A DNA stretch of 64,000 nucleotides from an uncultured Candidatus Saccharibacteria bacterium (GCA_964397855.1 CAYNKQ010000001.1:38046-102045), one strand, 5' to 3'. Positions 32,871-62,394 are shown, counted from the stretch's first letter. The notes: generated by a model from the letters alone, not told the origin. Numbers and translations are program-made.

Positions 32871-32909
32871 CCCCCATCATCATCAATACAGCTTTAATAT
32901 AATTTTATT

Positions 32910-33455: not shown

Positions 33456-33461
33456 CACTGC

Positions 33462-35407: not shown

Positions 35408-35965
35408 CTATACAGCCAATACGATGTTTTGCCATGCGAGCCCGTCACTATCCTTATAGGCAGCTCCGTCTTTCTTAAATCCGAGAGACTCATTTAATTT
35501 TGTTACAGCAATGTTGTCTGCGAGATGTCGAGAGTATACTGTTTTGAGTTTTAGCACATCTCGAATATAGTTTATCGCTGATTGCATTGCCGATCTACCG
35601 ATGCCTTTACCACGATAGTCGGGATTGCCTATCATGATGTGGATACTTGGGGATTTAACACCGTGATTTTCAAATAGCTCTATCCAGACGACGCCAATAG
35701 TTTTGCCGTCGGCCACGATAACACGAGTTATTTGCTTGCCGGAGTCCTCGAGATCGATAAATTCCTGCATAATGGCACGTTCACCTTCTAGGGTGGACGG
35801 TTCTATTTCGTTTTCTGAGTTGCCCATACTTAAGAGAGTGGCATGCCCTTCTGGGCGCGTAAACCAACTGTGTGCAAATGGGGTATCACGATCAACCTCC
35901 GGTTTTAGAAGTTGTATGTCGGTGTGCAGTGATTTCATGATTCTCCTATAGGCCTCGCTCGGCAT
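35408..35965 (-). CDS. GNAT family N-acetyltransferase (paralog of 32910..33455), co-operonic with the aminotransferase
   Basis: 185 aa. SIHIMIGNPDYRGKGIGRSAMQSAINYI GNAT motif A. Overlaps the upstream aminotransferase gene by 20 nt. Confidence 0.7.
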   Translation of the reverse strand: MPSEAYRRIMKSLHTDIQLLKPEVDRDTPFAHSWFTRPEGHATLLSMGNSENEIEPSTLEGERAIMQEFIDLEDSGKQITRVIVADGKTIGVVWIELFENHGVKSPSIHIMIGNPDYRGKGIGRSAMQSAINYIRDVLKLKTVYSRHLADNIAVTKLNESLGFKKDGAAYKDSDGLAWQNIVLAV

Positions 35966-37214
35966 AACGAGCTATAGCGTTCTCAAATTTTTCTATACCC
36001 TCGTGTAGTGTCTCGGTGTCTATATTCAGGGCAGGCATAAACTTAATAACCTCATTGTTGGCACCAGATGTTTCAATAATGAGGTTATTTTCGAAGCACA
36101 GTTGCCGTATCTGGCTCGCAGTCTCACTACTCTGGAGCTCAATACCGTAGAATAATCCTCGTCCTCGAACATCTACAAAAATATTTGGGTACTCCCGGAG
36201 TAGTGTCTCTAGTCTTTTGCGGACAATTAACTCTTTACTTTTAATTTCATGACTAAGATGGTCTGATCGCCAGTATGTCTCTAGGGCTTGTAGGGCGGTG
36301 ATAAAAGCTAAGTTATTGCCACGAAAAGTGCCATTATGTTGACCTGGGCTCCATATGTCAAGTTCTGGCTTAATGAGGAGCAGGGACATTGGTAAGCCGA
36401 TCCCAGATATTGATTTTGATAACACAATTAAATCAGGGTGGATATCAGCGAATTCAAAACTGAAAAAATCTCCAGATCTACCGCAACCTGCTTGAATATC
36501 ATCGATGATAAGTAAAATACTATGTTTAGTCGCTAGTGAGCGTAAATCTTTTAGCCAGTTGGCACTAGCAACGTTAACTCCACCTTCACCCTGAATGGTC
36601 TCGACTATGATGGCCGCTGGTTTATCTAGTCCACTGCTCGGGTCGTTCAGTAGTTTTTCGATGTAGGAAATACTGTCTAAGTCTTTGACGTAGCCTTCGT
36701 ATGGCAAGAAGGCAACATCATTAAGCGGGATGCCTGAAGCATTGCGAAATGATTCGTTGGCTGTGGCAGAGAGCGCGCCCAAACTAACCCCGTGGAACGA
36801 GTGTGTAAATGCAATAACGTTGCTGCGTCCTGTGTTCAGTCGGGCGAGTTTCAGCGCGGCTTCGATAGCGTTCGCTCCGGTTGGTCCAGTAAACTGTATT
36901 TTATATGATAAACTGCGTGGTTCAAGTATAATATCTTCGAATCCTTGAATGAAGTTAACCTTTGCATTAGTTGCCATATCGAGAGAGTGTACGATGCCAT
37001 CGGTACTAATATGGCTAACTAGTGCCTGAATTTGAGAATCCTCATTGTGTCCGTAGTTTAATGCGCCAGCACCACTAAAAAAGTCAATGTACTCCACACC
37101 ATCTTCATCCAAAAGACGCGAACCTTTTGCTTTGTTAAAAACTGCTGGAAAGACACGTACATAGCTGCGCACATTAGATTCGTATTTGTTTATAACGTCA
37201 TGAATAGAGCTCAT
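35946..37214 (-). CDS. Class-III PLP aminotransferase, diaminobutyrate--2-oxoglutarate transaminase (EctB/Dat)-like
   Basis: 422 aa. The N-terminus ...YESNVRSYVRVFPAVFNKAKGSRLLDEDGVEYIDFFSGAGALNYGHNE closely follows the EctB/Dat pattern (...E.RSY.R.FP.VF.KA.GS.L.DE.G.EY.DF.AGAGALNYGHN). Confidence 0.75.
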   Translation of the reverse strand: MSSIHDVINKYESNVRSYVRVFPAVFNKAKGSRLLDEDGVEYIDFFSGAGALNYGHNEDSQIQALVSHISTDGIVHSLDMATNAKVNFIQGFEDIILEPRSLSYKIQFTGPTGANAIEAALKLARLNTGRSNVIAFTHSFHGVSLGALSATANESFRNASGIPLNDVAFLPYEGYVKDLDSISYIEKLLNDPSSGLDKPAAIIVETIQGEGGVNVASANWLKDLRSLATKHSILLIIDDIQAGCGRSGDFFSFEFADIHPDLIVLSKSISGIGLPMSLLLIKPELDIWSPGQHNGTFRGNNLAFITALQALETYWRSDHLSHEIKSKELIVRKRLETLLREYPNIFVDVRGRGLFYGIELQSSETASQIRQLCFENNLIIETSGANNEVIKFMPALNIDTETLHEGIEKFENAIARYAERGL

Positions 37215-37258
37215 GGCGCCATATTAACATAAAAGGGTTTTTCCTCTATAATTAAGCC

Positions 37259-38677
37259 ATGTTGTACGATCACATTGTTATTGGTGGTGGTGCTATAGGC
37301 CTGGCGATTGCCTATCGGTTAAAGCGCGTGCGCAGCAACCAGTCTGTTTTGGTTCTTAATTCTAACGAGGATGCTACGGCATCATTGGCCTCTGGTGCAA
37401 TGCTCGGTTGTTTTGGAGAGGTAACCAAGTATACTCTTTTAGACGAGGACGCAAAGCGTAAGTTTGAATTGATGTATGCAGCGCACAGGCAGTGGGAAGC
37501 CTGGCGTAAGGAAATAGAAGAGTCGGCAGGTAGAAGTATCGAGCATATACCAGGAAGCTATATCATCTTGAATGCACACGGTGGCTCCCTGGATGATGAA
37601 AATTACAATGCCATGATTGCGGCACTTGATAAATACAGAGAACCCTATGAACTCAAAGATCCAAAAGATATTCCGGGCCTCAATCCAAATAGTCTAGCGA
37701 GACCGCTACGCGCAATATACCTCCCCAATGAGGGTTCACTCTCCAGTAATCAATACATAGAGGTTCTGACACTTGCCTGCGCGAATGTGGGTGTGGAGTT
37801 CTCGTCCATAAGCTCACTGGAATCGATCAACCGAAGAGAGGACGGTCAGTATCAGACAACCTTTGATACTGACAATATGGTTCTGGCATCAAATGTGATT
37901 ATTGCCACAGGTGCATATACCAACGAGGTAATCAAAAAGGTTACCCCTACCGTTAAGATGATGTCTGTTTTTTCGGGTAATGGAGTTGCCGCTGTAACTA
38001 AGCGTCAAATCGGCAAAGGCTTTAAGGCGACGGTACGAACTGCAAATCGCGCAGGATCTTGCGGGCTTCATGTTGTACCCATGGGAGACGGCTATGAGTA
38101 TATCGGTGCAACCAATGTGCTATATTCTCAGCCAGAGAGTCGTTTGACAATCGGGTTGTCGCACTTTTTGTCGCAATGTGCGATTGAACAGCTTGATTTA
38201 AACATTTACCATTCTTTTGTCGAAGCTTGGAGAGTCGGGAATCGACCCGTTTCTCTCGATACCATGCCACTTATCGGTAGGCTTGATCAGGGATTATATG
38301 TCGCGACGGGTACCTACAGGGATGGGCTACATTGCTCACCAACAATAGCTACGGAACTTGTGAACTTGATCAATGGAGTGGATGCCGATCTTATTACGAC
38401 TTTTGACCCTAAACGCTCGTTTGTCCAACTCATGTCAAAAAAAGAATCAATCGATGAATTTGCCATGCAGGCTGTGTCGGGTGCGTATGAAAACTGGCAC
38501 CGACCAACCTACTACATGGAAGATGATCTGGTCTATCAGGACGCGCGAAGGAAAGCTGTTGAAATTTACGATCGACTTGATACAGAAGTCGGTCTCCATC
38601 CGGATATCTTGATGCTTTTGGGGTCAAGTGAGAACACCATTAAGGATGTAGGTGCGTATTTGAGGAGCGTCCTATGA
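37259..38677 (+). CDS. FAD-dependent oxidoreductase (DAO/glycine-oxidase superfamily)
   Basis: 472 aa. N-terminal dinucleotide-binding motif IVIGGGAIGLAIAYRL. First gene of the plus-strand biosynthetic operon. Confidence 0.7.
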   Translation: MLYDHIVIGGGAIGLAIAYRLKRVRSNQSVLVLNSNEDATASLASGAMLGCFGEVTKYTLLDEDAKRKFELMYAAHRQWEAWRKEIEESAGRSIEHIPGSYIILNAHGGSLDDENYNAMIAALDKYREPYELKDPKDIPGLNPNSLARPLRAIYLPNEGSLSSNQYIEVLTLACANVGVEFSSISSLESINRREDGQYQTTFDTDNMVLASNVIIATGAYTNEVIKKVTPTVKMMSVFSGNGVAAVTKRQIGKGFKATVRTANRAGSCGLHVVPMGDGYEYIGATNVLYSQPESRLTIGLSHFLSQCAIEQLDLNIYHSFVEAWRVGNRPVSLDTMPLIGRLDQGLYVATGTYRDGLHCSPTIATELVNLINGVDADLITTFDPKRSFVQLMSKKESIDEFAMQAVSGAYENWHRPTYYMEDDLVYQDARRKAVEIYDRLDTEVGLHPDILMLLGSSENTIKDVGAYLRSVL

Positions 38678-39450
38678 GTTCAGAGAGAGATCTTATAAAT
38701 TCGGGCGGTAAGGTAAGTCGTTGGCCCAAGAAGCCAACTGAGCGAAAAGAGGTACTCGCGTATCTTGCGAGTAAGTTCATCTCTGACAGACCGTATGATG
38801 AAAATGAGGTTAACCAAATTCTAAAGCAGTGGCATACGTACGGGGATTGGGCGTCTTTGCGACGAGAGCTAGTCGGCTTTGGGTATGCAGTGCGAGATAA
38901 AAACGGTACTGAATACTGGTTTAGTACCGCCAGAAAAAAAACCGTTGAGAATATTCGAGATTTCAACCAAGATGCCGATACGGATCAAGTTCTGGATTTG
39001 CTAAAAGAATTTCAAAATCATTTAGCCCAAGTTGACAAGGAGAATGAAATTAGGAGTTTTTCGGGTGATAAGGACGCACGTCTATACCTTCAAAAAATGA
39101 TTGATGATGTTGCCGAGATGAACGGTAGATTTCTCGTACTTGATATGAGCGGGGAATTAGTTGGGTTTATTCAAGGAATCATCGATCCAAGGAACGATCA
39201 AGATAATGTTATGTACCAAACGACGCACAATGCTCAGATCGAGGGCTGGATTGGATTAGTATACGTTAAAGAGAATATCCGAGGTGGTGGATATGGGAGA
39301 AAATTAATAGAGGCAATGAGGCAGTATTTTACTGAGAATGGCTGTACGACACTTCGTCTTATTGTTGCTCACGACAATGTGGATACGGTCAACTTCTACC
39401 ACAAGTTTGGTTTTATTGATCGAGACATAGAGATGGCATTACCTCTATAG
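38674..39450 (+). CDS. DUF2087-like N-terminal domain fused to a GNAT acetyltransferase domain
   Basis: 258 aa. The N-terminal RWPKKPTERKEVLAYLASKF...ENEVNQILKQWHTYGDWASLRRELVGFGY pattern matches DUF2087. The C-terminal ...IRGGGYGRKLIEAM... is GNAT motif A. Start overlaps the upstream stop (ATGA). Confidence 0.6.
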   Translation: MSSERDLINSGGKVSRWPKKPTERKEVLAYLASKFISDRPYDENEVNQILKQWHTYGDWASLRRELVGFGYAVRDKNGTEYWFSTARKKTVENIRDFNQDADTDQVLDLLKEFQNHLAQVDKENEIRSFSGDKDARLYLQKMIDDVAEMNGRFLVLDMSGELVGFIQGIIDPRNDQDNVMYQTTHNAQIEGWIGLVYVKENIRGGGYGRKLIEAMRQYFTENGCTTLRLIVAHDNVDTVNFYHKFGFIDRDIEMALPL

Positions 39451-39453
39451 CGA

Positions 39454-42400
39454 TTGTTTATGAAAGTTGCTAAGAAACATCTTTATGATTTCATCCATGA
39501 GCATGCGAAATATCGTCCCGACACGCCTGCGCTACGAGACGATACGCATAGATATAGCTATGATGATCTAGATCGGATTTCAAATTATTTTGCAAATCAG
39601 CTCGTTGAGCTAGACGTTTCAGGTAAGCACGTCGGGTTGGTGTATGATCAATCTGCTCACAGTATTATTTTGTTACTGAGCATTATGAAGGCGGGGGCGG
39701 TCTATGTGCCAGTTGATGCAAATCTTCCTGTTGATCGACTAAACTCCTTGTTGAGTAAGGCCGATATCGCGCTACTTATTAAACCGATCGGATCGTCCTA
39801 TAAAAATAACGAAATACCGACAGTAGAACTCTCGCCTGTCAGTGGTTCGGAGCTCAAAGACTTTCCTCAGCTTCTGGATCCAATAGGGGGTGAAGTGGCG
39901 TATGCGATCTTCACCTCTGGTTCAACTGGTTTACCAAAATTAGCACGCCTTAGTCACAGTTCCGTTATCGGAGTAATGGAGTCACTAGTGGATAGATATT
40001 ATATAGAGGGTAGTGATCGGGTTCTCCAGTTTGCTAATTTGGCATTTGATGGGTCGATTTCAGAGATCTTCGGTGCTTTTGTTGCGGGGGCAGAATTACT
40101 GGTGCCAAGCTTATCTACAAGACAGGGTGTTACGCGGCTATCCGACTACATGAGAGATATGGTGGTGGACGTTGCGGTATTGCCGCCCTCACTGCTTACG
40201 CATCTTACTATTGATTACAGCCCAAAGACAGTTGTAGTAGCGGGAGAGCCGTGCCCTGCTGCTCTCGCAAAATTTATGGTTTCAAAGGTCGAACATTTCA
40301 TCAACGCATATGGCCCAACAGAGTGCTCTATTTGCGTATCCACATATGAGGTTCCTCGTAATTTTAATGACACGGTTGTACCAATCGGCCTACCGCTACC
40401 TAATGTAAAAACTTTAGTAGTGGGCGAGCACGGTGAACTGACAAAGCCCGGTCAGGCGGGAGAGCTGCTGGTTGGTGGGCCAAGCCTATTTGAAGGGTAC
40501 TATGATAACCCAGATAAGACTAAAAAATCTGTGAGGTTACACGGGGGTAAGAAGTATTATAGAACGGGTGATAATGTGTCAGAGCAAGATGGATTTTTTG
40601 TCTATCATTCGAGGGTCGGTGATTATATAAAAATACACGGACTACGCATTTCTTTATTGGAAATCGAAGATCTAATTCACGAATTTAGTCCAAAAATTCG
40701 TAGCGTCGCGGTTATTGTGGCGTCAGTTCATCAAGATGATGAACTCGTTGCGTTTTATGCGAGCAACGAAGAATTACCGGTTAGTGATGTTGTCACTCGT
40801 CTTCGTAGTAAATTACCAGAGTACGCGATACCGAGACAGTTTATTCGGATGGATCGTCTGCCGCTAAGCAGCAACGGTAAGATCGATCGACGACTCCTGG
40901 CCTCCAGGGCTAAGAGCGGCGCTACACTGCAAAAGCCTCAAACAGGCAATACCCTAAAAGCGATTTGGCAGAATGCTCTCGGCAAAAGCAGTATTAATGA
41001 TGACACGAACTTTCTCCTTGAAGGAGGTGATTCTCTTAGGGCGATGCGAGTTCTCTCTGAAGTTGATCGTGCATACGCCACCAGTCTGACTTTATCTAAT
41101 CTATTTGATCACCCAACCTTTGGTGAATTCTCTCGATTTATTAAGATGACTTCCCCGAGCAACCGTGATGATTTGAGCATTAATACAGACAAACTTTCTG
41201 AATACGAGAAGATGCTATGGAGTGCCTCATCGTATTCAGGTAACGCCGCCGCCTACACGCTAACAGAGCTTTTGAAGCCTGATTTTAAAGTAGACATCAA
41301 ACTGCTTCAAAAAGCAGCCGACAGGATGTCGAATCATTTCCCCGCGTCTTTTTATCGATACAAACTTGATAATGGTGAGCTCGTAAGATCCTCTTCATTA
41401 AGAGGAATAGGCTGTGTTATTCGCGGTAGTGTAACTCAAGATGTGCTTGATGAAGAGATTGCCACACTAAGTCATTTGCCAATAGACACTGCTACTGATT
41501 CGCTGATAAGTCTACATGTATTTACGCTTGATAATCAAACGGTTATTGCTATCCATGCTCACCATATCGTACTGAGTGCGAGCATCATTACGTCTTTTAT
41601 CGACACATTGTGGTCATTGTATCTAGATATTGACCACGAACCTCAGGTGATTGAATCTCCCATTCCGTTATATGATGACAAAGATAAGGAATTCTGGAGA
41701 GGAGCATACGATACTTCTACAGAGTACGTAGAGCTGCCGTGGGTAGGCGCTAGAAGCCCCACTCCGCGTAATAATGGACGAACATTACAGTATACACTTA
41801 ATACTCCTATTGAAGCGGCCTTACGCCACCTTGGCGTCACAAAGTACACTTTCTTTAGAAGTATATTTTCATTGATTCTACATCAGCTATCTGATCAGCC
41901 ATCGTTTTATGTTGGGAGCTCAGTGGACGTACGGAATGCTGATGGACTTGGTGGTAGGCCCGCACTATTGAATACACTTCCTGTGCCGTCGGTATTAGAT
42001 GACACTAGTCTTTCTTTTGGAGAGTTTGCACGTGGCAGCCAACAAAAGATACAGGAAATTCTAGATCATCGCTTCTTACCACTTAGTGAAATAGTAAAGC
42101 TTAACAAATTCGAACATGATAGGTTGATTGGGCCATTTAATATACTATTCGACTATATAGAAAAGCCAGACTCATACACCGTTCCGGGGCTTGGTCGAGT
42201 AAGTAGCGAGCAGGTCTTTAACGACACTTCTAAGTACGATTTAACCTTGACCGTATTAGAGTCATCCTCGGTTACTCTGCAATGGGAGTACGATGTAGAT
42301 ATTATAAACGCGAGCGACATTGAACGCCTGGCTGCGATGTTCATACATGTATGTCGATACATATCTGCCCATCCCGATGCCCTAGTGAATGAAATTGCGC

Positions 42401-45400
42401 TGCTGGGTGAGGCTGATCTCAAGGCTGCCTTAGCGATTGGAAAGGGTGAAATAAAGCTATACGACCAAGCCTCATTTTATGAGCGTTTTGTGAAAACAGT
42501 GCATTCTTATCCAGATCGAGTGGCTGTTAAGCATGGGGAAACTGTGACAACGTATAGAGATCTCGGTTATCTTGTTGAACACTATGCTCGCGTACTTGCG
42601 GATCATCATTTGGCGCCAGAGGCCGCTGTTGGTGTGTTGATGGAGCGATCTGTTGAGATGGTAGCTGTTATCGTCGCGCTGTGGCGAATGGGCCACGCCT
42701 ATGTTCCTATTGAGCCTGTTTTTCCAGAGCATCGAATCCGGTCAATTATAGAGACGACTCACATGTCATTGATTATTACCACATCGACACTTCTATCTCG
42801 GATGCCTCGCGAGAGCACGGCGGTCATTGTCGATGAAAATTATGAACCAAGTGCTACGAATATTTCAGGCACTAAGGTGACGACCGATACGCTGGCGTAT
42901 GTAATTTTTACTTCCGGGTCCACCGGCAAGCCAAAGGGTGTAATGATTGAGCACGGAGGTATGATGAACCATGCCGACGGAATGGTTGATAGGCTAAACC
43001 TTAATTTCAACTCAGTCATCGCTCAGACAGCCTCGCACTCGTTTGATATATCAGTTTGGCAGCTAACAACAATACTGCTCACGGGTGGATCTCTTGTTAT
43101 CTATTCAAAGGATGATCAAGCCAATATCGACACCTTTACATCGCAAGTATCAATCGATGGAATTACGCTTCTGGAGCTCGTCCCTTCTTATATTAGTGTT
43201 TTACTAGAATATATTGAAGGGAGAAAAATTCATGCTCGATTTGAGAGTATAGCTGCGCTGATATCAACTGGTGAGAATATATCTTGGCCAGTCGTCAGGA
43301 GTTGGACAGAAAACTTTCGGGATATTCCACTTATTAATGCATACGGTCCGGCAGAGGCATCCGATGACACAAATCTGTATATTTTTGACACTGTGTCCAC
43401 GATGAGTCACCGTGGCTTGCCAGTTGGTAAGTCTCTGCCGAACGTAGATGTATATGTCTTTAACAAATCATTGCAACCGCAACCGGCTGGAGTGCCGGGG
43501 GAAATCTATATCTCCGGTTCAGCTGTCGGTCGCGGCTACGTTAATGATGAAGCTCGGACGAAGGAAGTCTTTTCTATAAATCCATACGATAATACCCGGC
43601 TTTACAAAACTGGAGACATGGGGTATTGGTCGAATGACGGACAGCTTATGTATTTGGGGCGATCAGACTTCCAGGTTAAGATCCGTGGTTTTCGTATTGA
43701 GCTTGAAGAGATTGAAGCGCATATTATGGGCTATCCAGATGTACTATCGGTTGCCGTCGTCGTCTTTGAACATAACGGTTCTAAACAGCTTCATGCATAT
43801 TTAACATCCGAAAAAGAGATTGACACAGAGATGCTTCTGGCACACTTGCGAAGTCGCCTACCAGATTATATGGTTCCAGTGAGGGCGACCCAACTATCCG
43901 AGCTTCCACTGAACAATAGCGGTAAGGTTGACAGGAACCTCCTTACTAACAAGGAGAGGCTACGATTTAGGCAAGACGAAAGTGTGCCCATACAGCTGAC
44001 GAAGGAAGAAGCAGACGTCATTAGCGTGTGGAGTGAGGTGTTTGGACTCGATCACATATCAATTGACGATGATTATTACATGCTGGGCGGCGACTCAATC
44101 GCTTCTTTTAGAGTTTATGCAAAGCTTGCGGCTAAGGGATACAAGTTTCCACTTCAAGCTATTCTTGCACATCCGGTAGCACGTGATCTCGCAGCAGAGC
44201 TGCTCGTTACAAGAAAAACGAGTAATACCATGGCGAGTATTAAGGCAGAGACTGCTCTGCCGCTAACGCCGATTCAATCACGTCTCTTGTCGAACGGTCA
44301 CAAGTTGATTGCACAGAATGTATGGATCGATGGGTATTGGGACACGCAACGGCTCGGTTTGGCCATCCAGGTAGCTATTAAGAGGCATGGCGCATTCAGG
44401 CTTTCATTTACAAAAAGCACACAGAAATTTGAAAACGATATTCTTACTAGAAGAAACTTCACGTTTGTAGAGCCAGAAGTAGATAAGGCTACTGCGTTTG
44501 ATCGACTGGGCGACGACCTTGCGAATGGTGAGTTGTTATCGTACGGTGCGGTAGGGGACGACCACGCTATTACTAGGCTTTATATATCAGCAAACCACTT
44601 GGTGATTGATGTAGTCTCTTGGTCGATTCTGCTGGCGGATATCTATGAAGCGTATGATCATCCGAACGATAAGGCAGTGGCTATAGATTATAACTTAGGT
44701 CGGTGGGCATTATATCAACAGACAATAAAAGAGCCTCAAGAGCATCTGTTGTTGTGGCGAGATACTCTTTCGTCGGGTAAAGATGCTGTCAGAATTCTAC
44801 AAAATAAATTTGATGACTCGTTACCAAATGTGCAAGCTGTAAACAGCTCAGTTACTGTGGGTGATACTTTTATTGATGAAGCCCGTGTTTATGAATCTGT
44901 TATTGTTGGGCTAGAAAAAATACTTGGGGTAAAAGGTGTCAGTATTTTGGTTGAGTCACACGGTCGTTATGCTGAATCTTCAGGCGTGGATATCTCCCGT
45001 ACTGTTGGTTGGTTTACGGTTCTGTATCCAGTAGCGGGTAGTTATAAAGACATAGCGTCCGTCCTGAACGCAGATGATGACACTAGGCTGTCCTATGGTA
45101 GATTGATACAATCTGGGTCACTTCAGAAGCTGAGCGAACCACAAGTGATTGTAAATTATCTCGGCGACTTGGGATCAACCGGCTACCATTTACAGCGGAA
45201 CCGTCACGAGTTGCCACTTGATCGTGAACTAATGGAGATATCTATTTACAGACGACAGGCCGAGCTAATAATTGAGATGATGTTCTATGCGACGCCGATT
45301 GATAACCTGTTTATCGAGAGGTTGCAGAGTGCAATCGGCGATCAGCTAAGACGGGCCAATAACGTAGTGGACGACGACCGCCTAAGCACTATCTTGCGTA

Positions 45401-45420
45401 GATTGGAAGGTAACTCATGA
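39454..45420 (+). CDS. Non-ribosomal peptide synthetase, two modules: A1-T1-C-A2-T2-C(terminal)
   Basis: 1988 aa. A-domain cores occur twice (FTSGSTGLPK / FTSGSTGKPKG; FDGS / FDIS; NAYGPTE / NAYGPAE; YRTGD / YKTGD; GRxDxQVKIRG-like; NGKIDR / SGKVDR). T domains EGGDSLRAM and LGGDSIASF. The internal C has a variant HHIVLSA motif. The C-terminal ~370 aa form a C-like domain (NHLVIDVVSW). Confidence 0.9.
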   Translation: MFMKVAKKHLYDFIHEHAKYRPDTPALRDDTHRYSYDDLDRISNYFANQLVELDVSGKHVGLVYDQSAHSIILLLSIMKAGAVYVPVDANLPVDRLNSLLSKADIALLIKPIGSSYKNNEIPTVELSPVSGSELKDFPQLLDPIGGEVAYAIFTSGSTGLPKLARLSHSSVIGVMESLVDRYYIEGSDRVLQFANLAFDGSISEIFGAFVAGAELLVPSLSTRQGVTRLSDYMRDMVVDVAVLPPSLLTHLTIDYSPKTVVVAGEPCPAALAKFMVSKVEHFINAYGPTECSICVSTYEVPRNFNDTVVPIGLPLPNVKTLVVGEHGELTKPGQAGELLVGGPSLFEGYYDNPDKTKKSVRLHGGKKYYRTGDNVSEQDGFFVYHSRVGDYIKIHGLRISLLEIEDLIHEFSPKIRSVAVIVASVHQDDELVAFYASNEELPVSDVVTRLRSKLPEYAIPRQFIRMDRLPLSSNGKIDRRLLASRAKSGATLQKPQTGNTLKAIWQNALGKSSINDDTNFLLEGGDSLRAMRVLSEVDRAYATSLTLSNLFDHPTFGEFSRFIKMTSPSNRDDLSINTDKLSEYEKMLWSASSYSGNAAAYTLTELLKPDFKVDIKLLQKAADRMSNHFPASFYRYKLDNGELVRSSSLRGIGCVIRGSVTQDVLDEEIATLSHLPIDTATDSLISLHVFTLDNQTVIAIHAHHIVLSASIITSFIDTLWSLYLDIDHEPQVIESPIPLYDDKDKEFWRGAYDTSTEYVELPWVGARSPTPRNNGRTLQYTLNTPIEAALRHLGVTKYTFFRSIFSLILHQLSDQPSFYVGSSVDVRNADGLGGRPALLNTLPVPSVLDDTSLSFGEFARGSQQKIQEILDHRFLPLSEIVKLNKFEHDRLIGPFNILFDYIEKPDSYTVPGLGRVSSEQVFNDTSKYDLTLTVLESSSVTLQWEYDVDIINASDIERLAAMFIHVCRYISAHPDALVNEIALLGEADLKAALAIGKGEIKLYDQASFYERFVKTVHSYPDRVAVKHGETVTTYRDLGYLVEHYARVLADHHLAPEAAVGVLMERSVEMVAVIVALWRMGHAYVPIEPVFPEHRIRSIIETTHMSLIITTSTLLSRMPRESTAVIVDENYEPSATNISGTKVTTDTLAYVIFTSGSTGKPKGVMIEHGGMMNHADGMVDRLNLNFNSVIAQTASHSFDISVWQLTTILLTGGSLVIYSKDDQANIDTFTSQVSIDGITLLELVPSYISVLLEYIEGRKIHARFESIAALISTGENISWPVVRSWTENFRDIPLINAYGPAEASDDTNLYIFDTVSTMSHRGLPVGKSLPNVDVYVFNKSLQPQPAGVPGEIYISGSAVGRGYVNDEARTKEVFSINPYDNTRLYKTGDMGYWSNDGQLMYLGRSDFQVKIRGFRIELEEIEAHIMGYPDVLSVAVVVFEHNGSKQLHAYLTSEKEIDTEMLLAHLRSRLPDYMVPVRATQLSELPLNNSGKVDRNLLTNKERLRFRQDESVPIQLTKEEADVISVWSEVFGLDHISIDDDYYMLGGDSIASFRVYAKLAAKGYKFPLQAILAHPVARDLAAELLVTRKTSNTMASIKAETALPLTPIQSRLLSNGHKLIAQNVWIDGYWDTQRLGLAIQVAIKRHGAFRLSFTKSTQKFENDILTRRNFTFVEPEVDKATAFDRLGDDLANGELLSYGAVGDDHAITRLYISANHLVIDVVSWSILLADIYEAYDHPNDKAVAIDYNLGRWALYQQTIKEPQEHLLLWRDTLSSGKDAVRILQNKFDDSLPNVQAVNSSVTVGDTFIDEARVYESVIVGLEKILGVKGVSILVESHGRYAESSGVDISRTVGWFTVLYPVAGSYKDIASVLNADDDTRLSYGRLIQSGSLQKLSEPQVIVNYLGDLGSTGYHLQRNRHELPLDRELMEISIYRRQAELIIEMMFYATPIDNLFIERLQSAIGDQLRRANNVVDDDRLSTILRRLEGNS

Positions 45421-48275
45421 CGAGTCTGATTGTTGATATTTTGCCTACGACTCCCATGCAAGAGGGTATGTTGCTTCTTGAGCGTTCGTCAGCCAAAAAG
45501 TCGCTATATAAAGAGCAGTATGTAGCTAGATTGACCGGTAACTTAGACATCAGACTTTTTCTATCTGCATGGCAAAAGACAGTCGACACACACACGATAC
45601 TGCGAACAATTTTTGACTGGGATGGGCAAAACGACCCTGTGCAGATTGTACTGAGACAACACAAGGCAGACGTCAAAGTGGTTGATTCTCTTCAGGGTAG
45701 TCAAACAAAGGATGATGTAATCGCGGCTGAGGCGATTAAGGAGTTTAAAATTGATGTTACGCCGCCTCATCAGCTGTTGTTGGTCAGGATGAGTCCAAAC
45801 GACTACATCATGGTGTTTACTTACCACCATTTACTTCTTGACGGTTCTTCTGTGGCGAGCATCTTTAACTATTTTGCAGAACAGTATAACTCTCCTGATA
45901 CACTCCGGCCCGAGTTAAATAATTACGGCGAATATACTCGATGGGTGCTTGCTGTACCAAAACAGGACGCTATTAGTGCTTGGCGTACATACGCTGATCT
46001 TTCTCAGTTAGATCCAGAAAAAGGTGCAGTAGAGGATACTAACGATATAACTCAAGAATACTCCAGGGTGTTGACGGGGGATACAGTTGGTATGCTTTCT
46101 TCGCTCGTCCGAAAATATCATGTGACAATGAGCAGCGTGCTCCAGATTATGTGGGCGCAGACAGTCGCTCAAATGAACTCGAGACAGCTCGTGAGTGTCG
46201 GTTCGCCGGTAACCGTTAGGCCACTGGACGGAAGCCTCGACTCAATAGTTGGTTTATGCATTAATACACTACCCTATGTCGTGATGTTTGATGGGAAATC
46301 AGGATTTATTAATTTAGTTAAGCAGCATCAGCAGTCGTGGGGAGGGCTGATTGGGTTTGGGGGTTTGTCACTAAGTGACATTAAGAAGGCGCTTAAGTAT
46401 CGGCATTTTGGTGATACATTCGGGACACTATTTACCTATACAGATGAGCGAGACAGGGCCATGCCCAATCTGGTCGATGTAGAATGGCAGTTAGTATCTC
46501 ACGATGAAATTACGCAGTACCCGTTGTCGGTCGACTGCGTCCTTCGTGACGAAGCTCTTGAAATTAAGGTGACTTATCGTAGCGGGACGTATGACGAAAG
46601 TCTCGTGGCTAAAGTCGTCTCTAATTTCATTGGTATTATTAAAAGCGTTGTCGTCGATCCGAATCTGATTCCTCAAGTATCTGAAGAGTATGAGTCAGTG
46701 ACTCAACCCCCTGATGTGAGTTATGGCCCAACGGAGTTAGCAGGCGAGATTGCGGACGTATGGTCAATTGTATTTAGTGCGCCAGTATCTATTAACTCTA
46801 ACTTCTTTGATTTAGGAGGTGACTCAATCAGCTCACTTCGCATTGTAAGTAAGCTGTCCGAGCGGGGCATCGTTGTATCAATGCGCGATATCTTTGACGC
46901 CCCATCTCCATTGCTACTAGCATCTCGCGCCAATCGTCACACTGAGCCGCCGGGCAAAGTACACCGTACTATTGTACGATCAGAGGTGCATGATGAGGCA
47001 TTGCATCGTTTTGGCGATAATTTAGATACAATAGTTAAGGCTTCGAGTGTTCAGAGTGGAATATTAAACCGTTCCGCGAGCCGGGCCCAGCTCTACCATG
47101 ACCAGTCAACCTTTACGTACGAAGGGGTACTTAAAGTTGAATTATTTGAGCGGGCTTGGAATGAAGTTGTTAGGAATAACGACTCGCTATTGATGAGGTA
47201 CTTCCAACATGAAGGGATCTGGTACTGTACTAAGCTTAAGAGTGATAGTTTAGTAGTCAGATTCCGTGATATTGCCGAAGAGCCGAACCATAATGATCTA
47301 ATTCGGCGCGATATTGATGCCGATCTTCAGACGCCATTTAGTGTCGAAGATAAGCCATTGATTCGCTTAACTGTCTACCGGCAGGCTCGTGATATCCATA
47401 CGCTTTTTCTTAGCTTTAACATCCTGGTTACTGACGGGTGGGGATTTGCTTTTTTGTTGGACGATGTATTTACCGCCTATGAGCAGCTCGTCAAAGGCGA
47501 AGAGGTTCGACTAGTTGAGCGATTGCCCAGCTATACGGATTATCTTGGTGCTATAACACCAAGAGATATACTTGTCGGCCGACAATATTGGCAAGAAAAG
47601 CTTCGGAAGTGCGTCTCCCCGGGAGTTGTTATTGATAACTTTTCAAACCTTTCCAGTATGAGGGAAGTGCTGGATGATATGCAAACTGCTCGCTTACAGC
47701 AGTTAGCGAATGCGCAGAAGCTTACGGTAAATTCGTTAGTTCAAGCTGCGTGGGCAAGGGTATTAAATGGCCAATCGGGGGGTCAACCTGTTTTGTTTGG
47801 ATCAACAATTTCAGCTCGGTTACTGCACGGGGTGCATTATGATAACACGGTCGGGATGTTCTTCAACGACATTCCGGTAGTTGTGAGATGTGAAGAATCA
47901 GATGAAATTGCTAGCCTAGCTCGAAATATCCAGCGCGATTTTCAAGAGAGTGTTCGTTACGGGTATGTGTCGTCATATGAAATGTCTAAGATGTTAGGTA
48001 GGTCGTCGGAGCAAGCGCCGTACGATAGTATTGTGGTATTCGAGAATTACCCCAAAGTTGAAGAGGAGAGTTTGCGCAACAACTCGAGGGGCGGACTGGT
48101 CAACAGTGCGTTCTGGCGGCGAGACATGGCCGATATACCAAAAACACTGTACGTTGAAGTGATAGGCAATGAGACCGCTATTAGGCTCTCGTATAATCAA
48201 GATTTAGTTTCACGGCAGGAGGCAGAGGCTATGCTAGGGAAGTTCTATCGGGAGCTACTTTCATGTATATCATAG
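45417..48275 (+). CDS. Stand-alone NRPS C-T-C protein (no adenylation domain); second C domain lacks the active-site histidines
   Basis: 952 aa. C1 has canonical YHHLLLDGSS. T domain LGGDSISSLRI. C2 has FNILVTDGWG in place of HHxxxDG. Start overlaps the NRPS stop (ATGA). Confidence 0.8.
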   Translation: MTSLIVDILPTTPMQEGMLLLERSSAKKSLYKEQYVARLTGNLDIRLFLSAWQKTVDTHTILRTIFDWDGQNDPVQIVLRQHKADVKVVDSLQGSQTKDDVIAAEAIKEFKIDVTPPHQLLLVRMSPNDYIMVFTYHHLLLDGSSVASIFNYFAEQYNSPDTLRPELNNYGEYTRWVLAVPKQDAISAWRTYADLSQLDPEKGAVEDTNDITQEYSRVLTGDTVGMLSSLVRKYHVTMSSVLQIMWAQTVAQMNSRQLVSVGSPVTVRPLDGSLDSIVGLCINTLPYVVMFDGKSGFINLVKQHQQSWGGLIGFGGLSLSDIKKALKYRHFGDTFGTLFTYTDERDRAMPNLVDVEWQLVSHDEITQYPLSVDCVLRDEALEIKVTYRSGTYDESLVAKVVSNFIGIIKSVVVDPNLIPQVSEEYESVTQPPDVSYGPTELAGEIADVWSIVFSAPVSINSNFFDLGGDSISSLRIVSKLSERGIVVSMRDIFDAPSPLLLASRANRHTEPPGKVHRTIVRSEVHDEALHRFGDNLDTIVKASSVQSGILNRSASRAQLYHDQSTFTYEGVLKVELFERAWNEVVRNNDSLLMRYFQHEGIWYCTKLKSDSLVVRFRDIAEEPNHNDLIRRDIDADLQTPFSVEDKPLIRLTVYRQARDIHTLFLSFNILVTDGWGFAFLLDDVFTAYEQLVKGEEVRLVERLPSYTDYLGAITPRDILVGRQYWQEKLRKCVSPGVVIDNFSNLSSMREVLDDMQTARLQQLANAQKLTVNSLVQAAWARVLNGQSGGQPVLFGSTISARLLHGVHYDNTVGMFFNDIPVVVRCEESDEIASLARNIQRDFQESVRYGYVSSYEMSKMLGRSSEQAPYDSIVVFENYPKVEEESLRNNSRGGLVNSAFWRRDMADIPKTLYVEVIGNETAIRLSYNQDLVSRQEAEAMLGKFYRELLSCIS

Positions 48276-48967
48276 TAATTGATGTTACCAAACTATCTAT
48301 TGGAGTAAAGCAATATGCCTTAACGTTGTTGGACGAGTCAGAGAACGTGAGGTATTCTAGCTACCGACATTCAATTGATGCAGACTTGTTCTTATTCGGA
48401 AGGTTCTTGACTAGGCAGCTTATTTCACATTTTACAAAACGCACCCTGAACACTGTAACTATTAGAAGTGACAGTATTGCAGATAAGCCATATGACGTAA
48501 CAGGTGAGACTGAATTCAGTATTTCTCACAGTGGTAATTACGTTGCTGTCGCCGTGGGCGATGAACCGGTCGGTATAGATATACAGGTTCACGACCAAGA
48601 TGATATACAGATGTTTAATCCATTTTTTACCAAAGAAGAGCGTGTGTATGTAGGTAGCGATACTGGTAGATTCTACCGCGCATGGACAGCCATCGAGTCC
48701 TTGGCTAAGATAACAGGACTAGGGTTTAATGAGTCTCTTAAGGGCCGAATAATATATAATAACGGCTTTGAAATTGATAAATATATGCTAGGTAACGATA
48801 TAGTCTATATATCGTGCTTACTGGCAGACGACCAATTCACCCTTGGTATTTCAAACTATAAAGAGCCAGTTGTGACTGACCTTCCGTTTGGATGTATCAA
48901 GAAGGCACTTAACAATATCGATGAGTCGGCAATAATTTACTCTGGTAAAATACTATCCGAGGTGTAG
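48263..48967 (+). CDS. Sfp-type 4'-phosphopantetheinyl transferase
   Basis: 234 aa. FSISHSGNYVAVAV...VGIDIQ (G.D motif) and FYRAWTAIESLAKITG (W..KE[AS]..K motif). Overlaps the upstream gene by 13 nt. Confidence 0.7.
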   Translation: MYIIVIDVTKLSIGVKQYALTLLDESENVRYSSYRHSIDADLFLFGRFLTRQLISHFTKRTLNTVTIRSDSIADKPYDVTGETEFSISHSGNYVAVAVGDEPVGIDIQVHDQDDIQMFNPFFTKEERVYVGSDTGRFYRAWTAIESLAKITGLGFNESLKGRIIYNNGFEIDKYMLGNDIVYISCLLADDQFTLGISNYKEPVVTDLPFGCIKKALNNIDESAIIYSGKILSEV

Positions 48968-49971
48968 ATGTCGGTAGTATCGATATTTGCACCATTTTCA
49001 AAACCATTTACGAATGATCGGAACGCCTTAGGTGTGACCTCGTGGTTGTAGCCGCCGCCAAACAAGATTAGGGAGCGTATACTCATTTCACCTAACGATT
49101 GTCCGATCTGGCCATACTCTGCGTTATCCAGGTGTGTCAGTGGTGGTAGGTCGGGCCACTCGCGAGCATGCCCGTCAAAACCAGCCTCCACTATCAGGAT
49201 ATCTGTCCCGAAAGAGATAATCTTATCTTTTGCTCGCGCGAGTAATTGCATGTAGTCCTCATAAGAAACACCAATTGGAAACGGTAGATTTAAGATTGTG
49301 CCTTCTGCTGTACCGTTGCCCGTTTCGTGTGGGTAACCTGTGTGTGGCATTAATTCATCTGGATCAGCGTGAAGCGATACGTAGAGGATATCCGGGTCAT
49401 CTTGTAAGATGTCTTGCGTGCCATCGCCGTGGTGTACGTCAATATCTAGAATGGCAACTCGTTTTCCCGCTTGTTTTAGAGCTTCCGCCGCAATAGCTGC
49501 GTTATTCAGGAAGCAAAAACCATGATAGAATTCTCTTCCAGCATGATGCCCTGGCGGGCGGGCAAGGGCAATGGTCAGTCTTTTGCCTTCGTCGTTCAGG
49601 AGGCCATCGGCTGCTGCTATAGATATCTCTGCAGAGTTAAATGCCTGTTCAAGCGTGCCTGGATAGATAGCCGATGCATTGGTTCCATTATCTATATCGT
49701 AGCGCGATTTGACCGGTTCGTCTTCAGACGACGCCAAGCCTGCTTTATAGATGGCTTCTATCATGTTGGCGGAATGCAATTTCTCAACAATTTTAATCGT
49801 TTCAGGGTGTATCTCTGGAATAATAATCCACTCAGTTGACCTAGGGTCAGACAGTAGCTCGGTAACGACGCCATATAGACGTTCCGGAACATCCCAGGGC
49901 TGGCCATCTTCGTCGATCCATCCTTTATGAGCCTTATGGTCAGGGTTATGGTATATGTGACGATCTTTCAT
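48937..49971 (-). CDS. Histone-deacetylase-family amidohydrolase (acetylpolyamine/acetoin-utilisation AcuC-like deacetylase)
   Basis: 344 aa. ILDIDVHHGDGTQDI is the HDAC/arginase-fold zinc-site signature. Also has a GFCFLNNAAIAA motif. Convergent with, and overlapping, the PPTase gene. Confidence 0.8.
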   Translation of the reverse strand: MKDRHIYHNPDHKAHKGWIDEDGQPWDVPERLYGVVTELLSDPRSTEWIIIPEIHPETIKIVEKLHSANMIEAIYKAGLASSEDEPVKSRYDIDNGTNASAIYPGTLEQAFNSAEISIAAADGLLNDEGKRLTIALARPPGHHAGREFYHGFCFLNNAAIAAEALKQAGKRVAILDIDVHHGDGTQDILQDDPDILYVSLHADPDELMPHTGYPHETGNGTAEGTILNLPFPIGVSYEDYMQLLARAKDKIISFGTDILIVEAGFDGHAREWPDLPPLTHLDNAEYGQIGQSLGEMSIRSLILFGGGYNHEVTPKAFRSFVNGFENGANIDTTDIYTSDSILPE

Positions 49972-58009: not shown

Positions 58010-58518
58010 ACGAACCAGTCGCAAAAACATATGAAGATTTAGTGTTGCCACTCAGCATAATAAGCAAGGTAGATGTATCCCGTTTAGTGAATGAGGTTGA
58101 GCGGATTGATAACGAACTTATTGAGGCGTCTGTTCGTGTTAAATCCGGGGTGGATGCTCAGGCTCAGCCAGTGCTTTCAGATCAGCTTACTGATTTTCTG
58201 AATCAAAATAAGACTACTCTTAACGATAGCCGAGAGAGAGCGGCGCTAATAAAACAACTCCGCACACTAAAAGACAGACTTCCGGTTATTCATATGACAT
58301 TTGCATCTGTCGCTGATGGTGAAAGCCTCCAACAGCTTACACAGTGGCTACGGGCTTCGGTGCATTCACAAGCGGTTATTGCTTCCGGCATACAGCCTGC
58401 ACTTGTTGCTGGAGTGTATATTAGGACCCCAAGTCACGTGTACGATTTTAGCCTGCGCACAAAACTTAAAGGCCAACGCGGTGCACTCGTTAAAGAACTG
58501 GAGCAGCTACGTGGCTGA
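58006..58518 (+). CDS. atpH: F-ATPase delta (OSCP)-like subunit
   Basis: 170 aa. The C-terminal ...ALVAGVYIRTPSHVYDFSLRTKLKGQ resembles the OSCP C-terminal LIGG.I.R.GD.V.D.S.R..L motif. Located upstream of alpha. Confidence 0.55.
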   Translation: MNEPVAKTYEDLVLPLSIISKVDVSRLVNEVERIDNELIEASVRVKSGVDAQAQPVLSDQLTDFLNQNKTTLNDSRERAALIKQLRTLKDRLPVIHMTFASVADGESLQQLTQWLRASVHSQAVIASGIQPALVAGVYIRTPSHVYDFSLRTKLKGQRGALVKELEQLRG

Positions 58519-60103
58519 GGCTAAGGTATTTGAAAGACTTGTGGCCGCTGGCAATCCAGTCGGTGAAATTATTGGCATCGATTCATTTATGGTAAGCGTT
58601 AAAGGGCTTCAACCGACCAACGTTCACGCTACAGTGCGATTTGATGATGAAACCCGGGGCTATGTGCATCAGGTTCTTGAAGATCACGTTGTGGTTATGA
58701 AACTAGATCCGTCACCACTTCACGTTGGTGCGGTGTGTGTGATCGAAGGTCGCGACATTATGACTCCTGTAGGTAAGAACTTTATTGGACGAGTTGTTAA
58801 TGTGTTTGGTGAGCCAATTGATGGTAAAGGCCCAATTCAGCCCGATCAAGAGTGGGATGTATTTCATAATGCACCGGCTTTATATCAACGCGAACTACTT
58901 GATACACCGGTTGAGACAGGCGTAACGATTCTTGATCTTGAATATTCACTGGCCCGCGGGCAGCGCATGGCAATGCTTGGTGATAGTAAAGTTGGTAAAA
59001 CGGCACTGGCGGCGCAGGTAGCTATCAATCAGAAAAACACTGATATTACCGTGATCTACGTACTTATTGCAAAGCGTCAACATGACGTGGCAGAGCTTGT
59101 GAGCAATCTAGAAAAAAATGACGCACTCAAAAAAGCTATTGTGGTGGTAAGCAACTCATTTCAATCACTCATTCTAACGTATTTGGTGCCGTATGTTGGC
59201 GCTGCACATGGTGAGTACTTTTGGCATAAGTGCAACATGGACACACTGGTTATTTATGATGATCTTACGGCGCATGCCCAGGCATATCGTGAGATCTCAC
59301 TGATTGCCGGGGTTTCTCCAGGTCGTGATTCATATCCAGGAGATATGTTCTACACGCACTCCAGTTTACTTGAGCGTGGTGGTAAGACAGAATCTAACCA
59401 CGCCAGCCAAACGCTTGTCCCAATCGTGTACGCACCAGGTGGTGACATTACTGCGTATCTACCAACCAACATCATGTCCATTACTGACGGACAGTGGATC
59501 CTAGACGGCCAGATCTTTAAAGATACAATGCGCCCTGCCGTAAGTACGGCTCTTTCGGTAACTCGAGTTGGTGGTGTGGGTCAAAACAAACGTCAAAAAG
59601 GACTTGCCGACCAACTTAATCTAACGCTTGCTGGTTACCGAACTGCTGAAGAATATGCTCACTTTGGCACCGAACTCAGCCCAGACGCACAGGCTAACTA
59701 CGATAAGGGTAAAGTACTCTTTAAAATAATGAACCAAGGCATTGGTGAAATCTATAGTTTTGCCGAGCAGCAGTTTATTATGAGCATAGTGCTAAATAGT
59801 AGCCCGGAAGAAGTTATCGATATCGAACTGCTGAAAGAAAAAGTGCGTGCCTATGCATCAAGACTCCAGGAAGACGCCGATATGAAGGGTAATTTTGACG
59901 AGCTTGAAGCAGCGCTTAAGGCGGAGGTGACAACAATTGATGAAGCAAAGAAGGCTGCTCTCGAAAAGGCTGCCAAGCTCGACACCGAAAAGCAGCGTCA
60001 AACCGAAGAAGCTGAAAAAGTTGCAGCACAGTCAAACGGCTCTAGTGGATCAGATGAGTTGGAAAGTGCACGACCTGAGCCCGCCAAAAAGGGGAAGAAG
60101 TAA
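58511..60103 (+). CDS. atpA: F1-ATPase alpha subunit (divergent P-loop, Lys-rich C-terminal extension)
   Basis: P-loop GDSKVGKTALA (canonical GDRQTGKTA). ...SITDGQWILDGQIFKDTMRPAVSTALSVTRVGG matches the alpha Arg-finger region. Start set at GTG 58511, which overlaps the atpH stop (GTGGCTGA). The ORF track begins at 58301. Confidence 0.85.
   Translation: MAEAKVFERLVAAGNPVGEIIGIDSFMVSVKGLQPTNVHATVRFDDETRGYVHQVLEDHVVVMKLDPSPLHVGAVCVIEGRDIMTPVGKNFIGRVVNVFGEPIDGKGPIQPDQEWDVFHNAPALYQRELLDTPVETGVTILDLEYSLARGQRMAMLGDSKVGKTALAAQVAINQKNTDITVIYVLIAKRQHDVAELVSNLEKNDALKKAIVVVSNSFQSLILTYLVPYVGAAHGEYFWHKCNMDTLVIYDDLTAHAQAYREISLIAGVSPGRDSYPGDMFYTHSSLLERGGKTESNHASQTLVPIVYAPGGDITAYLPTNIMSITDGQWILDGQIFKDTMRPAVSTALSVTRVGGVGQNKRQKGLADQLNLTLAGYRTAEEYAHFGTELSPDAQANYDKGKVLFKIMNQGIGEIYSFAEQQFIMSIVLNSSPEEVIDIELLKEKVRAYASRLQEDADMKGNFDELEAALKAEVTTIDEAKKAALEKAAKLDTEKQRQTEEAEKVAAQSNGSSGSDELESARPEPAKKGKK

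Positions 60104-62394
<2,291 letters not shown>

Follow-up and report, generated by a model that had tools for sequence, protein, structure and literature searches.

The 64-kb fragment of a Saccharibacteria chromosome (Candidate Phyla Radiation, CPR, or Patescibacteria) analysed here, positions 1-64000 and called the window throughout, carries a non-ribosomal peptide synthetase (NRPS) cluster of about 14.5 kb (35408-49971), with three carrier domains and its own phosphopantetheinyl transferase (PPTase). The second synthetase of this cluster has no adenylation (A) domain. It consists of a condensation (C) domain, a carrier (T) domain and a terminal condensation-like domain, here denoted C*, and we refer to the whole protein as C-T-C*. 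C* is a member of the condensation superfamily with the PF00668 fold. Its changes in core motifs C1-C7 are fixed across the protein family and are accompanied by new polar and charged invariants, a pattern that suggests a remodelled site and not decay. We speculate that C* off-loads the peptide chain by histidine-independent aminolysis, with the amine masked and unmasked by acetylation, and we put the probability of this reading at roughly one in three (0.35). The protein and its domains are as follows.

45417..48275, plus strand: C-T-C* protein, 952 aa, without an A domain (open reading frame, ORF; translation; Pfam Condensation twice and PP-binding).
45435..46664, plus strand: C_b, a canonical DCL-type condensation domain, aa 7-416 (solved relatives).
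46737..46946, plus strand: T3 carrier, aa ~441-510, with Ser470 (Pfam PP-binding; no cognate A domain).
47034..48272, plus strand: C*, terminal DCL-derived condensation-like domain, aa 540-952 (alignments, AlphaFold2 model, Foldseek).

The initial annotation described this protein as a C-T-C synthetase without an A domain, and Pfam bears this out: Condensation matches in two stretches (E 3.9e-101), PP-binding covers residues 456-502, and no AMP-binding domain was found in the protein. Its ATG overlaps the stop of the upstream synthetase (ATGA). Since the protein has no A domain, T3 must either be loaded in trans or receive a chain, as had been reasoned earlier. The motifs reported for the first two domains were also recovered by translation. 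In C_b, the canonical YHHLLLDGSS lies at nt 45822-45851 and its HH is invariant in 11 homologues; in T3, GGDSISSLR lies at nt 46815-46841, with GGDS invariant in homologues. The best solved matches of C_b (BacC C after E, TycB1, SrfA-C) take D-configured donors, and this DCL type fits its position directly after an epimerisation (E) domain. T3 is 40% identical to T2, the predicted diaminobutyrate (Dab) carrier of the upstream synthetase, versus 23% to T1. T3 and T2 also have in common the GGDSI signature, which is typical of carriers facing E or D-clade domains.

C* reads FNILVTDGWG (nt 47415-47444) where relatives have HHxxxDGWS. This placement, proposed from the sequence in the initial annotation, was confirmed by hidden Markov model (HMM) alignment to solved C domains. 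In phmmer alignments, sfNIlvtDGW stands opposite tnHHillDGW in bacitracin synthetase 3 and snHHiliDaW in PvdL, with Asn at the first histidine position (His1) and Ile at the second (His2). The possibility that an intact HHxxxDG lies elsewhere in C* was also checked, and neither phmmer alignment to solved C domains nor an alignment with 70 relatives revealed an alternative copy. The earlier statement that both histidines are replaced is true of this sequence, but does not extend to the family, most members of which keep the first. Among 11 full-length members, the first position is His in eight, Ser in two and Asn only here, while the second His is never kept and is always Ile, Val or Leu. As a background for this figure, His2 is missing in 22 of 829 C-family domains of large synthetases (2.7%), half of them 'HQ' variants at internal elongation positions with an otherwise normal C5. 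Within the same 829 domains, the combination of a hydrophobic residue at His2 with FFND and WRR is confined to the C-T-C* family.

Comparison of motifs between the 11 family members and 70 DCL-type relatives extends these differences well beyond the histidines. The C* family is without the consensus at C1 (YPLxP...FH), C2 (RH), C3 (His2) and C4 (Trp712). Further, C5 changes from FINTLPxR to FFNDIPxx, Leu853 of C6 is lost, and NYPL of C7 becomes DIPx. The family has also gained invariants that are nearly absent in the relatives, namely H561, D562, S564, Y568, F816, D818, D841, F842, K880, W900, R901 and R902. The resulting invariant motifs read HDxS (HDQS here), WRR (WRRD here) and FFNDIP. Retained in C* are the DGW(S) half-motif, the Arg of the SxR segment and most fold-defining residues.

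The domain as a whole is held under constraint comparable to that of its canonical partner. Mean pairwise identity across the 11 homologues is 0.49 for C* versus 0.49 for C_b, with 62 invariant residues versus 55, and identity ranges down to 30%. The AlphaFold2 model of C* (pLDDT 88, pTM 0.85) predicts a complete C-domain fold, which Foldseek matches with probability 1.0 and TM scores of 0.83-0.87 to TycB1, SrfA-C and PvdL C3. The best sequence matches are likewise DCL domains, specifically BacC C (after E), PvdL C3 (after E2), TycB1 and SrfA-C. C domains that are active after mutation of His2 are on record, the VibH work being among those cited, and Cy domains lack His2 (PMC10510592). The loss of this residue is not proof that C* is inactive. 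Because C* is strongly constrained, because its changes are concentrated in catalytic motifs and bring in new acidic and basic invariants, and because His2 is dispensable in some other C domains, we rate it more likely that the site has been remodelled and still works than that it is dead.

In every member C* closes the protein, and neither a docking tail nor a further synthetase follows it. The usual DCL context is missing on both sides, there being no E domain before T3 and no acceptor module after C*. No PF00975 thioesterase (TE), reductase (R) or extra AMP-binding domain was found in the scanned ORFs (about 100 aa or longer) across the window, and the related loci contain no TE, R or third A domain. 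A TE hidden beyond the C-terminus was looked for and is not there: the PPTase gene starts at 48263, and a deacetylase gene follows on the opposite strand. The earlier claim that the cluster has no TE anywhere therefore stands for these domain types, but has to be qualified by a 197-aa alpha/beta-hydrolase encoded at 32183-32776, to which we return below. In the absence of TE and R domains, release must be non-standard, as the initial annotation had concluded.

The chain that reaches C-T-C* can be predicted from the upstream synthetase, which is organised as follows.

39454..45420, plus strand: upstream NRPS, A1-T1-C_a-A2-T2-E, 1988 aa (Pfam).
About 39511-40923, plus strand: A1 (Pfam).
40951-41142, plus strand: T1 (Pfam).
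41194-42417, plus strand: C_a (Pfam), with HAHHIVLSAS at 41554-41583.
42493-43953, plus strand: A2 (Pfam).
About 43996-44208, plus strand: T2 (Pfam).
44251-45417, plus strand: E domain (PDB matches), with SANHLVIDVVSW at 44587-44622 and VESHGR at 44950-44967.

Specificity residues were taken from alignments to solved A domains. The A2 code DIWEITADD matches that of PvdL-A3 (DIWELTADD), which is the L-2,4-diaminobutyrate domain of pyoverdine biosynthesis, at 9/10 positions, and A2 has the same Dab pocket. The A1 code DGSVVAAIC, compared with DAWTIAAIC of GrsA-PheA, gives an aromatic (Phe/Tyr)-type pocket in which the pocket-floor Trp239 has become Ser. Both codes are conserved across homologous synthetases; a literature search for the Dab code strings returned no match. 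Dab is supplied within the cluster itself by an EctB-type diaminobutyrate-2-oxoglutarate transaminase, which scores 638 bits against NF006733 (cutoff 438) and 629 bits against TIGR02407 (cutoff 552).

The initial annotation had noted that this NRPS also ends in a C-like domain. Every solved-structure match of this final domain, however, is an E domain (PvdL E2, BacC E, TycB3 E, GrsA E, TycA E), and its motifs read xHLVIDVVSW, VESHGR and SRTVGWFT. It is an ordinary epimerisation domain that feeds the DCL C domain of the next protein, and not a candidate for release or scaffolding. Since the NRPS ends in E and the next protein opens with a DCL C domain, the donor passed on is aromatic-aa-D-Dab. 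No C domain precedes A1-T1.

Two motif variants in this synthetase deserve mention in their own right. In the E domain, the first His is Asn (SANHLVIDVVSW) here and in close relatives and HH in distant relatives; the catalytic second His and ExHGR are kept. In C_a, between T1 and A2, the motif HAHHIVLSAS has both His residues, with Ser-Ala for the Asp-Gly of HHxxxDG. This variant is shared with close relatives, the distant locus L083 reading HHIIMDA, and makes C_a a further non-canonical C motif within the same assembly line.

From these components we propose the following sequence of events. T3 would receive its amino acid in trans; given its resemblance to T2, this would most likely be Dab loaded by A2. 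C_b would form tripeptidyl-S-T3, and C*, which is DCL-derived and has an intact fold with its catalytic motifs replaced in a conserved manner, would stand in for a thioesterase. Aminolysis on C* would rely on positioning, with no histidine acting as base, and the nucleophile would be either the Dab side-chain amine, giving a lactam or cyclic product, or a soluble diamine-type amine. The linked GNAT(s) and an acetylpolyamine amidohydrolase (APAH)-like deacetylase may then mask and unmask that amine, or the amines of the product, in a protecting-group or self-protection cycle. On this evidence, aminolytic off-loading appears the simplest job for C*. The genes on which the acetylation part of the proposal draws, and the remaining members of the cluster, are these.

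48263..48967, plus strand: Sfp-type 4'-phosphopantetheinyl transferase, overlapping the C-T-C* stop (Pfam AASDHPPT_N and ACPS).
48937..49971, minus strand: HDAC-family amidohydrolase, nearest to acetylpolyamine amidohydrolases (Pfam Hist_deacetyl 1.5e-60).
38674..39450, plus strand: fusion of DUF2087 and a GNAT acetyltransferase (Pfam; synteny).
37259..38677, plus strand: FAD-dependent oxidase of the DAO family, ThiO-like (Pfam DAO 4.6e-37; NCBIfam ThiO below cutoff).
35946..37214, minus strand: diaminobutyrate-2-oxoglutarate transaminase, EctB type (NCBIfam NF006733, TIGR02407).
35408..35965, minus strand: GNAT (Acetyltransf_3), the left edge of the conserved cluster (Pfam; PDB matches).

The best single-domain matches of the deacetylase are the APAH structures 3q9b, 6phr and 3men (E 1e-38 to 6e-43, the latter for 3q9b). 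RPPGHHA, DIDVHHGDG, AGFD and GGGYN align to APAH with zinc and catalytic residues all intact. It has the features of that class, with an HDAC fold, tandem His, D-H-D zinc ligands, a catalytic Tyr and a single domain of ~340 aa. The GNAT at the left edge has as its nearest solved relatives, all of them weak, the diamine N-acetyltransferase 8fv0 (4e-6) and SpeG (about 3e-5), and its gene adjoins the transaminase gene in the related loci L002 and L083. The GNAT of the DUF2087 fusion shows weak PDB similarity to N-alpha-acetyltransferases. Together, the strictly linked acetyltransferase(s) and deacetylase suggest that a primary amine is masked and unmasked, whether for release, regiocontrol or self-protection. 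The FAD oxidase appears accessory, being found only in close relatives and in neither L083 nor L084.

The conservation of this gene set was assessed from four related loci with enough flanking sequence (L001, L002, L083 and L084). In all four, the core comprises the NRPS, C-T-C*, the HDAC/APAH-like enzyme, DUF2087 and at least one GNAT, and the PPTase and transaminase are usually present in related loci. The deacetylase, DUF2087 and at least one GNAT stay with the synthetase pair even in 30%-identical versions. Two shorter fragments retain the order C*-PPTase-deacetylase, and the deacetylase occurs in every related locus. The PPTase gene is syntenic in L001, L002, L083, L085 and L088. DUF2087, which is fused to a GNAT in the present genome, is a separate small gene (86-112 aa) in L001, L002, L083 and L084, a constant companion of the synthetase pair.

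Several points weigh against aminolytic release by C*. To our knowledge, every characterised chain-releasing C domain (VibH-type, fungal CT) keeps the second His, and the His-less C-like domains that we know of (X, I) are recruiters and not catalysts. C* has lost the consensus of C1, C2 (RH), C4 (Trp) and C7 (NYPL), and the lost residues may include donor-arm contacts. Loading of T3 is deduced from the 40% T2/T3 identity only. If Dab thioesters self-lactamise, Dab bound to T2 should also be at risk. Moreover, the GNAT and deacetylase could serve plain self-resistance or activation, unrelated to release. The initial annotation had suggested amine capture, and this idea is plausible and strengthened somewhat by the context of an APAH-like deacetylase and a diamine/spermidine-type GNAT; a scaffold role, or intramolecular release via the Dab side chain, fits about as well. 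We also considered the fullest form of the aminolysis proposal, in which C* would be a new functional C subtype, a His-independent off-loader built around H561/D562, D818 and W900-R901-R902 that carries out aminolysis of a Dab peptide with a GNAT/APAH-gated amine, in a genome-reduced Saccharibacteria episymbiont, a setting in which NRPS chemistry has scarcely been described. We regard this as possible and hold it only tentatively.

A second possibility, which we consider unlikely without thinking it far-fetched, is that C* is a non-catalytic platform. Like X and I domains, it would hold T3 and bring the deacetylase, a GNAT or the FAD oxidase to the peptide tethered there, release being either spontaneous, as the deacetylated Dab side chain attacks the thioester, or left to a recruited enzyme. 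His2 is missing in all members, several conserved C motifs are lost, and the deacetylase is strictly co-conserved with C-T-C*, all of which would suit such a role. There is also precedent for it among the His-less C-like recruiters X, I and MxgB (PMC10510592, PMC13638107). However, C* groups with catalytic DCL domains by sequence and fold, the X domain 4tx2 is not among the matches listed, and no P450 or beta-hydroxylase partner is encoded. Further, the family invariants fall in active-site motifs, whereas a platform would be predicted to conserve a surface interface.

Poorer odds attach to C* as an on-line tailoring domain, for example a Cy-like cyclodehydratase. The chemistry envisaged would close a ring between the gamma-amine of Dab and the carbonyl of the preceding amide, yielding a tetrahydropyrimidine (a cyclic amidine, as in pyoverdine/ferribactin), with off-loading by hydrolysis or self-cleavage. 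Dab is a conserved building block, C* has gained an invariant Asp at C5 and near C1, and its closest solved relatives include PvdL C3, sited at the Tyr-Dab junction. Cy domains use Asp/Thr elsewhere, which likewise counts in favour of tailoring. They are also, like C*, without the His motif (PMC10510592). Yet C* has no DxxxxD, no sequence match to Cy (5t3e) and no CmodAA signatures, and tailoring would leave release itself unexplained.

We give little credence to C* as an inactive remnant kept for folding or stability, with release falling to a trans hydrolase (32183-32776 or a housekeeping enzyme) or to slow spontaneous cleavage. The catalytic His is absent, and the Ser_hydrolase/Abhydrolase_1 protein mentioned above is encoded 2.6 kb from the cluster. 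Against this, conservation of C* equals that of the active C_b down to 30% identity, with its 62 invariants, and none of the four related loci with sufficient flank has the hydrolase. As a candidate for the missing TE, this hydrolase was rejected: it does not belong to PF00975, its gene is not syntenic, and that gene falls within a putative tRNA-Asn island.

21052-21126: tRNA-Asn, one end of the putative integrated element.
21085-22884, minus strand: large serine recombinase, abutting tRNA-Asn.

A 17/19 copy of the tRNA-Asn 3' end lies at 33667-33685, which would give a putative element of ~12.6 kb (21052-33685). Because the hydrolase gene lies between tRNA-Asn and this copy of its 3' end, it probably belongs to the integrated element and not to the NRPS cluster.

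Finally, transfer of the T3-bound chain by C* to a carrier of another synthetase copy (e.g. A1-T1), giving an iterative oligomer or a head-to-tail cycle, is barely credible: A1-T1 has no upstream C domain and C* derives from elongation-type DCL domains, but C* has neither the catalytic His nor a C-terminal docking tail, no epimerase precedes it to provide a D-donor, and nothing else points to iteration.

The aminolysis proposal places C* beside several known classes of C-fold domain, none of which it matches fully. DCL domains (TycB1, SrfA-C, PvdL C3, BacC) resemble it in sequence (E 4e-43 to 1e-21) and fold. C* differs from them in the change of His2 to I/V/L, in the altered C1, C2, C4, C5 and C7, and in its C-terminal position after an A-less carrier with no acceptor module. 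It was therefore not accepted as a catalytic DCL domain with HHxxxDGWS, the motif being [H/N/S][I/V/L]xxxDGW in 11/11. VibH and amine-capturing C domains release a thioester onto an amine without a TE, which is the likeness proposed for C*. C* has in common with VibH a terminal position and the lack of a TE, whereas HHxxxDG is intact in VibH, which matches C* weakly (1l5a, E 7.5e-7), and polyamine-type chemistry is here hinted at by gene neighbours only. Fungal CT, with its SHxxxDxxS/T motif, was set aside, as C* has no His2 and TqaA (5dij/5egf) is not among its matches at E<=1e-3; TqaA matches C_b weakly.

X and I domains have the C fold without a working His motif and are conserved as recruiters of trans enzymes to a carrier, whereas C* groups with DCL domains, has its conserved changes in active-site motifs and sits in a cluster without P450 or beta-hydroxylase. 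Specifically, the glycopeptide X domain was rejected because the cluster has no P450 and no TE and 4tx2 is absent from the sequence matches and from the 50 Foldseek matches listed, and the interface (I) domain because no beta-hydroxylase (TauD / di-iron) is found in the cluster or related loci. The CmodAA signature comprises a [K/R]SVLLAAH helix before C5 and an Arg pair at the start of C6 (PMC11342130). C* instead has N772-SLVQAA-W779, as DCL domains do, and AmbE (7r9x) matches it at E 3e-13 versus 4e-43 for the best DCL domain; this identity was also discarded. A Cy identity fails on the missing DxxxxD, on a first position that is N, H or S and never D, and on the lack of a sequence match to 5t3e. 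An E identity, for which HHxxxDxxSW and EGHGRE are diagnostic, fails on DGW(G/S) and the lack of ExHGR.

At the level of the whole protein, fungal GliP-type synthetases (A-T-C-A-T-C-T) have a terminal A-less C-T couplet on a dipeptide-forming NRPS. These and the CmnI/VioI type (PDB 9uay, trans-loaded) resemble the present system in using an A-less carrier for off-loading or cyclisation at the end of a line with two A domains. They differ in that here the couplet is extended to C-T-C*, with an extra His-less C after the carrier, is preceded by an E domain, and is bacterial (Saccharibacteria).

Cyanobacterial C-A-T-C proteins (P0026 from Xenococcus, P0034 and others) provide a parallel to the motif, as their terminal DCL-like domains read RHF(I/V)(V/A)DGWS with a hydrophobic His2. 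In contrast to C*, these C(HF) domains keep His1 and are followed by further C-A-T modules, and no change was seen in their C5. They were not accepted as the same class, being neither pathway-terminal nor closer to C* than HH domains are. Two such proteins are encoded in hybrid polyketide synthase (PKS)/NRPS loci, L086 (10001-14584, Xenococcus PCC 7305) and L087 (10001-14623, a JGI metagenome), where a class-III aminotransferase gene and further modules directly follow the C(HF) proteins. The C(HF) domain seems to be a His-less C-like domain that recurs in the 'E-domain position' and is apparently uncharacterised. The megasynthetases P0266, P0284 and P0389 contain several internal elongation C domains reading HQ(M/L)xxDGWS, with Gln for the catalytic His and the other motifs normal. 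These HQ variants suggest that some D-clade C domains can do without His2.

C-T-C* belongs to a small family with a narrow host range. About a dozen full-length homologues were found among 5.8 billion clustered proteins, all with the C-T-C* architecture, at 30-50% identity and 947-987 aa. A profile search of 1.84 billion representatives placed two more family members (P0340 and P0342), both C-T-C*, in its top 150; no alternative architecture was seen in that search, in which mega-synthetases with summed scores made up most of the output. When GTDB representative genomes were scanned with the family alignment, no family member was found; the matches were generic NRPS picked up through the carrier motif, all <=29% identical. 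A search with C* alone returned eight short proteins and missed the known family; one of them, P0122, is a contig-edge fragment. The homologues come from Candidatus Saccharibacteria, Candidatus Microsaccharimonas and one 'Dongiaceae' metagenome-assembled genome (MAG). Where the source names an organism, the distribution is almost entirely within Saccharibacteria, with the two most divergent loci, L083 and L084, outside that count.

Several features place the cluster on the chromosome of a Saccharibacteria lineage and argue against an artefact of binning. A glmS gene (11044-12870) lies on the same 160,635-bp contig, and its organism-named best GlmS matches are all Saccharimonadales/Saccharibacteria at 61-62% identity. 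The GC content of the cluster (0.448) equals that of the window (0.450), and a LexA / Wzy_C / Bac_transf / GT4 neighbourhood is common to the window and the Microsaccharimonas MAG locus. It is on this GlmS affinity, equal GC and shared neighbourhood that the chromosomal assignment is based. The block of LexA-like, Wzy_C, polyprenyl-phosphate glycosyltransferase and GT4 genes spans 14469-20702 in the window and 16206-20562 in L001, the Microsaccharimonas MAG locus. It lies on opposite sides of the cluster in the two, which implies that the surroundings they have in common were rearranged.

TE-less release by terminal C domains is already known. His-less C-like domains are also known, including X, I, some CmodAA and MxgE (PMC10510592, PMC11342130, PMC13638107). 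The literature searched contained no description of this A-less DCL-T-C* family with its fixed alternative motif set, of its almost exclusively Saccharibacterial distribution where the source organism is named, or of the DUF2087, GNATs and APAH-like deacetylase that always accompany it. New chemistry has been found again and again in atypical C domains (X, I, CmodAA, beta-lactam-forming and others). For that reason C*, a strongly conserved His-less domain in the place of a TE, is a promising candidate for a new logic of release. The fixed partnership with a polyamine-type deacetylase and acetyltransferases further suggests a use of protecting groups that engineering could borrow.

The Saccharibacteria host is a more unusual feature than the C* variant. 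Literature searches on NRPS in Saccharibacteria/Patescibacteria yielded no description of this cluster, and gene clusters are rarely reported in this radiation (PMC7298704). Whatever the mechanism, it is unusual for Saccharibacteria to carry an NRPS cluster of 14.5 kb that is vertically maintained and has its own PPTase. Genomes in this group are about 1 Mb in size. A cationic aromatic-Dab peptide could serve the relationship between episymbiont and host.

The remaining observations concern the surroundings of the cluster. The putative integrated element, which ends just before the NRPS cluster, carries genes for Pol IV (26676-27971), a SRAP peptidase (25307-25987), a TIR-domain protein (28741-29550), a VIT-family protein, the alpha/beta-hydrolase (32183-32776) and a GNAT (32910-33455). 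Two genes to the left of the cluster are resistance-like, namely this third GNAT and an AadA-like aminoglycoside nucleotidyltransferase (33830-34609). ATP synthase genes lie at 58301-62394. Near the other end of the window, a gene for a Fic/DOC-family protein (5922-6662, minus strand) overlaps a SocA/Panacea antitoxin-like gene (6649-7230, minus strand), the two forming a probable toxin-antitoxin pair.

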